Origin: Escherichia coli
GTDB taxonomy: Bacteria > Pseudomonadota > Gammaproteobacteria > Enterobacterales > Enterobacteriaceae
Reading direction: 5' to 3' (one strand)
Assembly (NCBI RefSeq): GCF_017348835.2
Contig: NZ_CP072317.1
DNA: 64,000 nt
Position 1 is the stretch's first letter. Every line of letters starts with the position of its first letter. Below are positions 27,001-30,000 of this stretch, piece after piece. Position numbers: made by a program.

Positions 27001-30000
27001 AGGAAATTGCGCATGTGGTTAAAGCGCGGTGAAATCAGCTCAAAACCGTTTTTACGGAAGCTGTTCAGGATGTCCTGCTCCACTTCCAGCGCCGTTTCAT
27101 TGTTGTCCTTGCAGAATGCTGTGATGTTGAGGAAGTAGGACACGACAGAAGACTGACCGGAGCCCAGACGCTGACGCAGTTCCCCCCACTCCTTCGCCTC
27201 TTTCTCCACGGACGGAAACCATTTGGCATAGGAGGTCTTCGACTTTTTCTCCAGGTCCATGTACTTCAGGTTGGCTTCGCTGTGGGTTTTCACCTGGTCT
27301 TCCACCACCAGAGTCAGCGTCAGGATGAACGGACAGGAGATGGACAGTTCCGGGTTCAGCAGGTTGCTGTAGTTGTCGGCCATATTCCACAGGAAGGCGA
27401 TTTCCGGGTTACGGGCCAGATGGAAATTCAGGATACGGGCCGTGCTGTTCCTGCCGTTCTCACGCAGGCCCAGCGTCAGGTAATCAGCCCGGACATTCAG
27501 GTCAAAACTGTCCTCCACACACTGATAATTCAGATCAGAATACGGGTCCAGCTGACGTCTTTTCGGGTACAGGGAGTCCGGGTTATGGTTAATCATCTCC
27601 CCGACAATATCGATAAAGGCCTGTGCATCCACCGTCTGTGTGGCGATACTGGCCCCCTGTAACGACGCCCGGATGATTTTCACCAGGTTTTCCATTTCCA
27701 GAATGTCAGCCCGGCTTTTTTTCTTCGAGGGAGAACAGTACGAGATAAATACCCGGTAATGGCGCAGGGTCAGGGGCAGATTCATCCCCTCCGGCAGCGG
27801 AAACTGTGTCGCTGCCGCTTTCATATAATAGGCCCGGGTAATGGCGTTAAACCGTTCAGCCTGTTCACCTGACCAGGAGAACTCACGCAGCCCGTACTCA
27901 ATCCTGTCACCAACCAGCTGACTGGACATCAGATGGATACACAACGGAATACCGCGCGGCAGTTTGGTGCGCAGCATGTGATCGAGTGCCTCCACAATGG
28001 ACTTATTCGCCCCATTGATGGGAATGGCTTCCAGCATAAAGCCCATCGTGGTGTCATTCATGAACAGACCGGATTCCTGGTTGTAATCACGGTACGGCAG
28101 CAGACGGCTGAACTGCGGGAAGCTCATTTCGCCCAGAACTTCATTGGCCTTTGCGGATTCGTCAGGCAGTTTCAGTGCTGTGACGAGGGAGTTAACCGCC
28201 TGAGTGACGGCCTCAAGTGGGTTATTACTCATATGAGTATTCCTTAGTGCGTTTAAAAAAGGAAAATATCAGTCTGTGGCCGTGGATATATCACGCAGTG
28301 CCATTCCTGAAACCACAGCACAAATAAGAGATGGAGGCTTTTAACAGGAAACCAGGATTAACGTTCCTTTACTGAATGAGCATCATTTAATGCCTGAATT
28401 TGTTTTTCGCGAATCTTATTGCGCTCATTTTCTCTTACACGTTTCACCTCTGCCATTTCGTTTCTTTTTCTGCATTCTGATGCGATTTTATTTGCCTTAC
28501 CAAGTGTTAAAGGTTCAGACTGATAATTAAGTGTCTCCTGAAATGCTTCTGCTGCACAGGGAGTTTCCTGTAAAATCTCTGTCAGTTGTTCTGGTGTTGC
28601 AGGTTGTTGCGCAAGGTAAACGATGTAAAAAGGAATACATACAATCATAGCCATAACGCCAACAAATATAAAAGCCAGAACAGATTTTAAATATATCGAC
28701 TTCATTTCATTTTCCTTCGAAGCAGTAAGCACTCATTGCCCACCACCATTTAGTGTTTCCATCACGCTGTTCAAAGGTTCATTTGTTTTAACTTCAATAC
28801 ACTCCCCTGTATTTCCAAAGCCCCTGCCGCCATGTGCTTCGATTGTCCGAAGAACCTGCACGCATACGTCCGTATTTGGCATGGGTGTAATATTCCAGCT
28901 TCCGCCACCGTTAATATTTTTTATCAGCACAAGAAAAATAAAGGTATGCATTCTTTATTATCTCCGCTTGTATATTAATCACTGAATATCCCTTCAGTTA
29001 ACTTATGAGGTCATAAAACACTGCAGATTCTCATTCGGATTTATTCCCTTCAGTAAACTTCCGAATAGTATCCTGTTCACGCTGACGGGTGGCAGACTCC
29101 TGCATTGCATCCACTTTCTCCTGCCAGAGACGCCGGATATCCTGTTCATCCCGACCAGTCAGTTTTTTACCGGACAACAAACGGTTAAGCAGTTCCTGTC
29201 TCACATCTGGTACGTCTTCAGTCAGACGCATAAGCCGGAGTAATTCCTGACGACTGAGTACCATGCGTGATTCCTCCGGTACGCTGTAATAATTAAAAAT
29301 ACGACTGAATACCCCACAACAGCAGGCAACGGACAGGCACAGGGATTTCAGATACAGGCCAGAAACACAGAATGTGGCAACACCACAAAGAATAGCTATA
29401 ACTAAAAATCCCTTACCCAGTGCCATACACAAAGAACCCTGTTTTCTGGATATCCGCTCATGCTCATCCAGAATAAAATCTATTTTTTCATTTTCTGATT
29501 TATGCATAGTGTTTCCTCTGCCTTTCCTGATACGCCTGACATTCAACGCACAACGTCACACCGGGAAATATTTTCCGCCGGGCTTCCGGAATAGGATTTC
29601 CGCATGCTTCACAGAGATAAACAGGAATACCATGAACATTTATTTCCTGGCGTATCCGGTTTATTCCTGTCATGGTCAGTTGTTCTGTCACTGAATATGC
29701 TTCATCGGCTTCATCACTCACGGAATATTCCTCCCGACATGTTCTGACACGCTACCGCCCATCCCTTTTCACGCACAGGGCACTCGTTTTACAGGCGGAT
29801 TTTGAATACAGAAAGCCCGCCGGCATTGCCGGCTGATATACAACTTCAGGGCCAGTTAATTAATACGTGGTTTTCCCCACGCAGACGGTTTAATAACAAA
29901 AAACACGCTGGATGGCTGATGATAAACATCCTGGTTATCAATATAAGGCGCTATCCATAATGCTGCCGTCTGCTCACCCGTTCTTAGCGGACGAGGAGGT

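Follow-up and report, generated by a model that had tools for sequence, protein, structure and literature searches.

In plasmid F and in F-type plasmids, the transfer gene traC follows traR after only 159 bp. In R100 and pC15-1a, the same position after traR is occupied by yfhA (also called yfiA), yfiB, and yfiC, all annotated as conserved hypothetical genes. A conserved hypothetical YfhA has likewise been described directly after traR in pEntH10407, together with the observation that YfhA is present in R100 and absent from F (Ochi et al. 2009, PMC2762410). Here, we consider this locus in a 64,000-nucleotide stretch of Escherichia coli DNA (RefSeq assembly GCF_017348835.2, contig NZ_CP072317.1; the whole stretch is referred to below as the window), where an F-type transfer operon of the R100/pC15-1a IncFII type lies on the minus strand and three co-oriented open reading frames (ORFs) fill the interval between traR and traC. 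An original prediction, made from the sequence of the window, had called these ORFs a cargo cassette and suggested envelope-associated accessory functions expressed with the transfer machinery; its observation is confirmed with small corrections, and part of its interpretation is supported. The locus has been described and named before, and the function of yfhA, yfiB, and yfiC is a matter of inference: the searchable literature on yfhA, yfiA, yfiB, yfiC, yafA, and traR-traC yielded no functional study. The yfhA deleted by Benz and Hall was set aside as a name clash, being a different gene from the R100 yfhA beside traR; theirs is an IncI-type leading-region gene with partial predicted ParB-like homology (PMC10104558). 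What the present work adds is the recognition of F as the plasmid that lost the genes, the definition of a YfhA/YafA family, and the description of recombining alleles of the YfhA membrane hairpin.

The tra operon of F-like plasmids encodes TraS, a small polymorphic inner-membrane protein for entry exclusion whose allele types recombine from plasmid to plasmid. YfhA resembles it in being a small, highly polymorphic inner-membrane protein of the tra operon (allelic variation of traS was also seen in our six-plasmid comparison), but YfhA has a large conserved cytoplasmic domain and alleles that are independent of traS and traG, and phmmer and profile searches against all ORFs of the window found no sequence similarity between the two proteins. 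The SLATT two-transmembrane (two-TM) effectors of nucleotide-signaling and retron defense systems are similar in size to YfhA and share its plan of a two-TM hairpin flanked by cytoplasmic helices; YfhA, however, has neither a sequence-profile match to them nor associated sensor or enzyme genes. YafA, found in the IncI plasmids pCol1B9 and pESBL and in some IncFII plasmids, shares with YfhA the N-terminal helix, the two-TM hairpin, and a C-terminal domain with the motif RLLSGKxMTGRDE. Unlike yfhA, its gene adjoins a FinO-domain gene near the replicon, not traR, and a different gene, encoding 88 amino acids (aa), follows. The function of yafA has been stated to be unknown (Gerovac et al. 2020, PMC7491321). 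In a transposon screen of the IncI plasmid pESBL, a gene named YafA was scored 0.96 non-essential for maintenance and transfer (PMC4288162); it is tied to the YfhA/YafA family by name, size, and position only, not by sequence.

Based on the evidence described below, we posit that yfhA, yfiB, and yfiC are ancestral genes for dispensable accessory factors, produced along with the transfer apparatus, and that YfhA would be a membrane-tethered cytoplasmic adaptor. We put the probability of this reading at roughly 0.4.

The traR-traC spacer of F

Was a cassette added to the F order, as the word cargo implies, or is the F order itself derived? In the window, the ATG of yfhA overlaps the traR stop codon in ATGCATAA. 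This ATGCATAA overlap also opens the 159-bp spacer of F, and the traC ribosome-binding site closes it, as in the window. Its translation gives a YfhA N-terminus, MHKSVAEHSDLIPDEHEWIFRKQKSLYM, and, once the frame has shifted by one base, GNGALITGIPFMATAFLALFFN, half of the first TM helix (TM1) of a known allele. That is, the spacer retains the first ~28 codons of a yfhA allele and halts just ahead of the traC ribosome-binding site; compared with the window, it lacks the whole stretch from mid-TM1 of yfhA through yfiC and contains a frameshift. No YfhA-family protein can be made from this spacer. It was read in p3PCN033 (L002 3418-3584; comparison sequences are cited here by such L numbers) and is identical in F (NC_002483.1 73538-73778). 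The same deletion junction occurs in 2230 plasmid records, including F itself (NC_002483.1, 100% identical).

Other lineages also carry related genes at this position. The distant F-like plasmids L007 and L016 have a yfhA homologue (~24-36% identity) overlapping traR, and the pSLT slot contains traR-yfhA with the overlap kept, plus an 87-aa gene. Klebsiella IncFII(K) plasmids have neither traR nor yfhA in the slot; between traV and traC lie genes for YfiB (70% identity), for a YfiC-like protein (41-44%), and for three further small membrane proteins. A search at the locus for flanking repeats, insertion sequences (IS), or an integrase found none, only short repeats of chance size. Given that a remnant of yfhA persists in the F spacer and that related genes lie in the slot of other lineages, the three-gene set would be ancestral and F would carry a deletion. 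On this comparison of spacers and slots, yfhA-yfiB-yfiC is ancestral and was lost by classic F, and the canonical F order is derived. The original prediction had given that order, traR then traC, correctly, and it is the notion of cargo that these observations overturn. The synteny comparison that it proposed finds the genes in R100-type relatives (100% identical in many IncFII plasmids) and deleted in F-type plasmids, with a related slot in distant F-like plasmids, pSLT, and Klebsiella. The small genes vary across lineages, which makes the traV/traR-traC slot a variable hot spot of long standing for such genes.

Two side observations concern the same slot. A second multi-TM family (45-132 aa in the examples listed) lies directly before traC in type-C plasmids, pSLT, a distant F-like plasmid, and Klebsiella IncFII(K) plasmids (L017 6471-6848; L028 20585-20848; L007 6507-6644; L005 5879-6277); in type-C plasmids and pSLT, it replaces yfiB and yfiC. 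In plasmids still typed as conjugative, ISKpn26 or IS903B lies between yfiB and yfiC (L025 845-1825, L026 771-1739), at a position equivalent to about 28706-28760 of the window, and IS903B clips the 3' end of yfiB.

The locus as found in the window is itself widespread. The 1628-bp traC-traV interval is 100% identical to that of pC15-1a and many other IncFII plasmids, and 1073 of the 3744 matching plasmid records contain at least 80% of this query, most of the 3744 covering only its traR-traV end. RefSeq annotates the same three coding sequences (CDS) in pC15-1a, each as “hypothetical,” which agrees with the ORF list of the window in making the three tightly packed minus-strand ORFs real. The names come from AFDB hits for ORF1 (YfhA; yfiA in one record) and ORF2 (YfiB) and from UniRef for ORF3 (YfiC).

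The YfhA/YafA family and its hairpin alleles

YfhA, the 158-aa product of ORF1, has the two TM helices and the Cys cluster that were predicted for it: seven Cys residues (positions 27-64), each of them within or next to one of two hydrophobic helices (residues 31-52, hydropathy 1.77; residues 55-74, hydropathy 1.23). The cluster does not hold as a feature of the family, given that the TM hairpin core of allele type C has no Cys. In the AlphaFold2 (AF2) model (pLDDT 81), helices span residues 5-47 (an N-helix running into TM1), 51-74 (TM2), 86-98, 100-111, and 118-156, and the periplasmic side between the TM helices amounts to only about three residues (LKS, 53-55). Based on charge and on the model, both charged ends of the protein are presumably cytoplasmic. 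Alignments place a conserved motif, xEKIxxILDEH, in the N-helix and a near-invariant one, RLLSGKxLTGRDExxI, in the three-helix C-domain, where L110, L111, and G113 are invariant and R109, S112, T117, D120, and I124 are near-invariant.

YfhA has homologues in Enterobacterales plasmids only; they form 149 clusters at 90% identity, each annotated as hypothetical, and a profile search gave 94 clusters at 50% identity. YafA is homologous to YfhA at ~35% identity, with E values of 1e-13 (tblastn) and 1.5e-20 (local phmmer), and ~1080 plasmid records match a YafA query at 60% identity or more. As far as these searches reach, YfhA and YafA make up a plasmid-only family with no Pfam entry. The YfhA of the window has the family features, namely, the N-motif, the two-helix hairpin, the C-domain motif, and a conjugative-element context. 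Family genes are placed directly after traR, a FinO-domain gene, or a NusG-like gene (window, L007, L016, L008, L011, L009, L024), with exceptions in the other plasmid or island contexts of L013-L015. In IncF plasmids, the preceding gene is traR or finO; in IncI plasmids, it is the FinO-domain gene fopA, formerly yafB; in IncX-like plasmids, it is the NusG-like gene. For YafA, two contexts were read, a colicin Ia-encoding IncFII-type plasmid contig and an IncI-gamma/K1 plasmid, and in both, yafA directly follows the FinO-domain gene and precedes an overlapping 88-aa gene.

Some further observations on the family were made in passing. The IncX-like member lies between a NusG-like gene with a 74-88-aa ORF and genes for a lytic transglycosylase, VirB3, and VirB4 (L008 2811-3272; L011 5001-5492; L012 2125-2616). 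The gene adjoining a family member is often an expression regulator (TraR, FinO-domain, or NusG-like), a pattern that we do not count as evidence. TraR-YfhA fusions were rejected as clues to function, P0041 and P0042 as singleton frameshift read-throughs and P0099, P0107, and P0026 as singleton rearrangements.

Could the three proteins be structural or assembly accessories of the F-type pilus and type IV secretion system, like TrbI, TraP, and TrbB, that improve pilus assembly or mating-pair function under natural conditions? The genes lie within the mating-pair-formation block, just ahead of the gene for the traC ATPase, the IncX-like relatives precede lytic transglycosylase and VirB3/VirB4 genes, and YfhA and YfiC are predicted membrane proteins. 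However, the 2230 records that share the deletion, F included, do without all three genes, and the YafA relatives lie outside transfer operons, beside rep and fopA. NCBIfam Tra/Trb models for F-type transfer proteins gave no match to ORF1-3 in the same search in which traR scored 179 bits, and phmmer and profile searches for paralogues among the other ORFs of the window returned the query only. We consider a role in assembly improbable.

A different possibility is that YfhA is a SLATT-like two-TM pore-forming effector of suicide or abortive infection, triggered via its cytoplasmic domain. Foldseek matches to SLATT-domain proteins are in this direction, and they are weak (best E 0.33, probability 0.99, TM-score 0.46-0.50, root-mean-square deviation 8.6 A), as is the match to the NCBIfam retron Ec48 2TM model (E 0.82, 9.2 bits against a cutoff of 65). 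The scores are far below thresholds, and Pfam SLATT matched neither YfhA nor any of 17 family members. The neighbors of yfhA are traR, yfiB, yfiC, and traC, with no nucleotide-signal enzyme, retron, or sensor gene nearby, and the gene is co-translated with traR in an operon expressed in healthy donors. This is, in our estimate, the least probable of the explanations considered here.

What sets YfhA apart from a plain membrane anchor is the hairpin. The ~55 residues between its conserved ends fall, in alignments, into at least five unrelated types. Between the window (type A) and the type-B plasmid L020, nucleotide identity is 97-100% through traV and traR, drops to 35-70% over ~260 nucleotides (nt; about 29500-29240), and then returns to 92-98%. 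Synonymous divergence (dS) ranges from 1.2 to saturated in this core, compared with 0.25-0.36 in its flanks and 0.04 in traR. This excess in the core means that the hairpin alleles are old and maintained and that they move by recombination; relaxed constraint alone cannot yield such divergence.

Some plasmids carry two alleles in tandem. In E. coli S50 plasmid A (L003 4799-5678), the first yfhA copy is of type A, cut at residue 130 and fused to the last traR codons (…TQRKHYA), and the second is a full type-B yfhA with its own ATGCATAA-type overlap. A second tandem array is present in L022 (945-1824), and the copies carry differing hairpin alleles in both arrays read. The cut first copy fused to a traR tail points to unequal crossing-over between plasmids of differing alleles. 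By tblastn, yfhA occurs at 1782 places in 1459 records, which would correspond to roughly 320 plasmids with two copies; this figure is simply places minus records and is rough, and a junction-specific search was blurred by joined BLAST pieces. Across six transfer regions, yfhA type showed no covariation with the types of traS, traG, traN, traA, or traJ: L030 (type B) and the window (type A) are 97-100% identical in TraG (97%), TraS (99%), TraT, and TraN, and L029 and L031 (both type B) have different TraS and TraJ. That the yfhA alleles do not track these specificity loci argues against a polymorphic partner inside the tra operon.

Does the hairpin, then, recognize something in the membrane? 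Immunity proteins to pore-forming colicins act by intramembrane specificity. By analogy, a polymorphic YfhA hairpin would recognize, within the membrane, a polymorphic membrane-acting agent (a pore-forming toxin, a transfer component of a rival plasmid, or a protein of a pilus-dependent phage) and would confer allele-specific immunity or exclusion, with YfiB and YfiC as helpers or as separate small defense or anti-defense factors. Discrete, ancient hairpin alleles within otherwise 95-100% identical DNA, together with tandem arrays of differing alleles with a traR tail at the junction, fit such conflict better than they fit a plain anchor; the alleles assort independently of backbone, traS, and traG, and a YfiB paralogue lies in a leading region beside methyltransferase, ssb, and psiB genes. 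On the other side, no toxin or other polymorphic partner was found nearby, a simple immunity protein would not be expected to have so strongly conserved a cytoplasmic domain, exclusion is already served by traS and traT on this plasmid, and F-type plasmids without the locus are still the majority form. Searches of defense and phage families gave no significant match (best E 0.007-0.05): PADLOC returned a single match (E 0.023, 11.9 bits), and the best PHROG match was to a family of unknown function (E 0.007), with no holin family among the matches and no lysis genes nearby. On balance, we find this explanation, the main rival to the accessory reading, rather unlikely. It is distinctly more doubtful that YfhA and YafA are plasmid-wide allelic membrane “specificity cassettes,” whose hairpins protect in an allele-specific manner against an unrecognized membrane-acting agent of plasmids or their phages. 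If that were true, the conserved cytoplasmic domain would relay a signal to a common host or plasmid target, and two tandem alleles would widen the protection of the plasmid.

YfiB, YfiC, and the layout of the operon

In the window, the gene order is traV, traR, ORF1, ORF2, ORF3, spacer, traC, as taken from the ORF list and the sequence (Table 1). The original prediction held that ORF1 is translationally coupled to traR. Coupling is supported by the overlap of the two genes, which is retained even in YfhA homologues of ~24-36% identity. It also held that the three ORFs are expressed with the transfer machinery: promoter and terminator signals were sought between the three genes and the tra operon, and internally within the region, and none rose above chance, which makes co-expression with the transfer genes a reasonable reading of the sequence. 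An RNA family search of the region gave no match. The only part of the spacer between yfiC and traC that is common to the F-type spacer is the traC Shine-Dalgarno sequence; the predicted fold of this spacer is no better than that of shuffled sequence (z -0.30), and an attenuator hairpin ahead of traC was rejected on that ground.

Table 1. Features at and around the traR-traC interval of the window
Feature	Coordinates	Strand	Basis
traV	29856-30371	-	ORF list
traR, DksA/TraR-type zinc-finger protein	29500-29721	-	NCBIfam PRK13715 TraR, E 1.2e-53, full length, 179 bits; RefSeq in pC15-1a
ORF1 = yfhA (also yfiA), 158 aa, predicted inner-membrane protein	29031-29507	-	ORF, traR overlap, AF2, family alignments
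yfhA hypervariable core, codons 21-80, TM hairpin; window = allele type A	29268-29447	-	Nucleotide identity, dS
ORF2 = yfiB, 72 aa, Gly-rich, predicted soluble	28733-28951	-	AF2, AFDB names, homologues, dN/dS
ORF3 = yfiC, 115 aa (alternative GTG 28732 = 124 aa)	28358-28705	-	RefSeq CDS, UniRef name, Klebsiella homologues, hydropathy
yfiC-traC spacer, 125 nt, holds traC Shine-Dalgarno ACTAAGGAAT	28233-28357	-	Alignment with F-type spacer
traC, VirB4-type ATPase, downstream border of variable slot	25602-28232	-	ORF list; RefSeq WP_000069777.1, identical to R100 TraC

YfiB is Gly-rich, as had been noted (11 of 72 residues, 15%), and has conserved Cys residues at positions 30 and 51. The expectation of membrane character, which stands for ORF1 and ORF3, fails here: no 17-residue window of YfiB reaches TM-like hydropathy, and the AF2 model (pLDDT 80, pTM 0.65) has a beta-beta-alpha-beta-alpha fold in which the hydrophobic N-terminus forms a core strand. 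YfiB is predicted to be a small soluble protein and, having no signal peptide, is presumably cytoplasmic. It is the most widespread of the three, with full-length homologues in 3563 plasmid records, more than 2000 of them from Klebsiella. As a separate observation, the YfiB paralogue of the leading region (45% identical) was read in K. pneumoniae pKPN-b0b (L006 4495-4707), between a methyltransferase gene and ssb/psiB, and it has matches at or above 60% identity in ~100 plasmid records. A 70-aa leading-region ORF in L027 was rejected as a YfiB paralogue, being of low complexity and unrelated.

For ORF3, the predicted TM helix and charged tail stand, and the predicted length of 124 aa does not. 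The 124-aa version would start at the GTG that abuts the ORF2 stop codon. The ATG at 28705 has an AAGGA motif 8 nt upstream and is used by RefSeq and by most homologues, and in plasmid JML285_P2, this ATG overlaps the stop codon of the gene before it; together, these points make it the better start, and the 115-aa protein is most likely the real one. With this start, ORF2 and ORF3 do not abut, as had been described, and are separated by a 27-nt gap. YfiC has one TM helix at about residues 8-30, with two Lys residues before it and no Lys in the 15 residues after it, and then a charged tail (14 K+R, 14 D+E). The ~85-aa helical domain after the TM helix has a conserved QPATPEQL motif and two conserved Cys residues, all kept in the Klebsiella homologues (41-44% identity). 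The flanking charges suggest that the N-terminus is inside and the domain in the periplasm; that is, the domain most likely faces the periplasm and is probably disulfide-bonded.

Are these genes under selection, or are they decaying leftovers without present function? YfiB and the YfhA C-domain evolve under purifying selection, with pairwise ratios of nonsynonymous to synonymous divergence (dN/dS) of 0.17-0.28 and about 0.2-0.4, respectively. Intact reading frames occur in more than 1000 plasmids, from 100% down to about 45% identity, and the translational coupling is conserved across deep divergence. In favor of decay are the deletion of the locus in the majority F-type lineage, the IS elements between ORF2 and ORF3 in some plasmids typed as conjugative, a low G+C content, and the condition of YfiC, whose dN/dS of 0.7-0.9 among close relatives, based on few substitutions, points to weak constraint and whose homologue is frameshifted in some Klebsiella plasmids (in one of those read here). 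The G+C content of the three-gene stretch is 41%, compared with 54-58% in traC, traB, and traK; at 45.5%, traR shares the low value. We hold decay of the whole set to be very improbable.

Elsewhere in the operon, a second low-G+C stretch (42-45%) at 30300-30750 of the window takes in the trbD region together with the 3' end of traP (30675-31262, minus strand); of the proteins compared across the six plasmids, those of trbD and traP are the least conserved (29-93% and 34-85% identity). A hypothetical gene for a 101-aa protein (WP_000224416.1) lies between traU and trbC at about 23266-23571 (L001 1034-1339), and around trbC and traN, the related plasmids L027 and L029 have differing small ORFs as well as a gene for an HNH endonuclease. 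This extra gene and the differing ORFs suggest that the transfer operon has several variable slots.

A possible accessory role and its meaning

In the model that we favor, the three genes would be read through with traR from the tra promoter, yfhA being translationally coupled to traR. The conserved domains of YfhA would bind a target that the hosts of IncF, IncI, and IncX-like plasmids have in common, and its hairpin would mainly anchor or oligomerize the protein in the inner membrane. YfiB would act as a small soluble, presumably cytoplasmic protein, and YfiC would be a single-pass protein with its helical domain toward the periplasm. Together, we speculate, the three proteins adjust donor-cell physiology or the state of the envelope while the apparatus is synthesized and do not build the channel. 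F transfers without yfhA, yfiB, and yfiC, and an accessory, non-channel role would account for the ability of F and about 60% of its relatives to dispense with them.

Several points weigh against this proposal. The common cytoplasmic target of YfhA remains postulated, and the topologies of YfhA and YfiC are drawn only from hydropathy, charge, and the AF2 models. A plain anchor does not explain a hairpin whose core synonymous sites are 5-30 times more diverged than its flanks, and a simple membrane anchor leaves the ~320 two-copy plasmids unexplained. Finally, library, solved-structure, and fold searches, which include the remote homology search that the original prediction had called for, gave no link of YfhA, YfiB, or YfiC to a characterized family.

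Nonetheless, the locus bears on plasmids of practical weight. The genes are part of the transfer operon in the IncFII plasmids that disseminate resistance genes, CTX-M-15 among them, and they are present in more than 1000 sequenced plasmids. The YfhA hairpin is allelic, an unexplained polymorphism within an operon that has been studied in great detail. F, the laboratory model of the family, cannot reveal the role of these genes, given that it is a deletion derivative. If the genes alter donor fitness, envelope stress, phage sensitivity, or competition between plasmids, they would help to explain differences in the behavior of R100-type and F-type transfer regions in nature.

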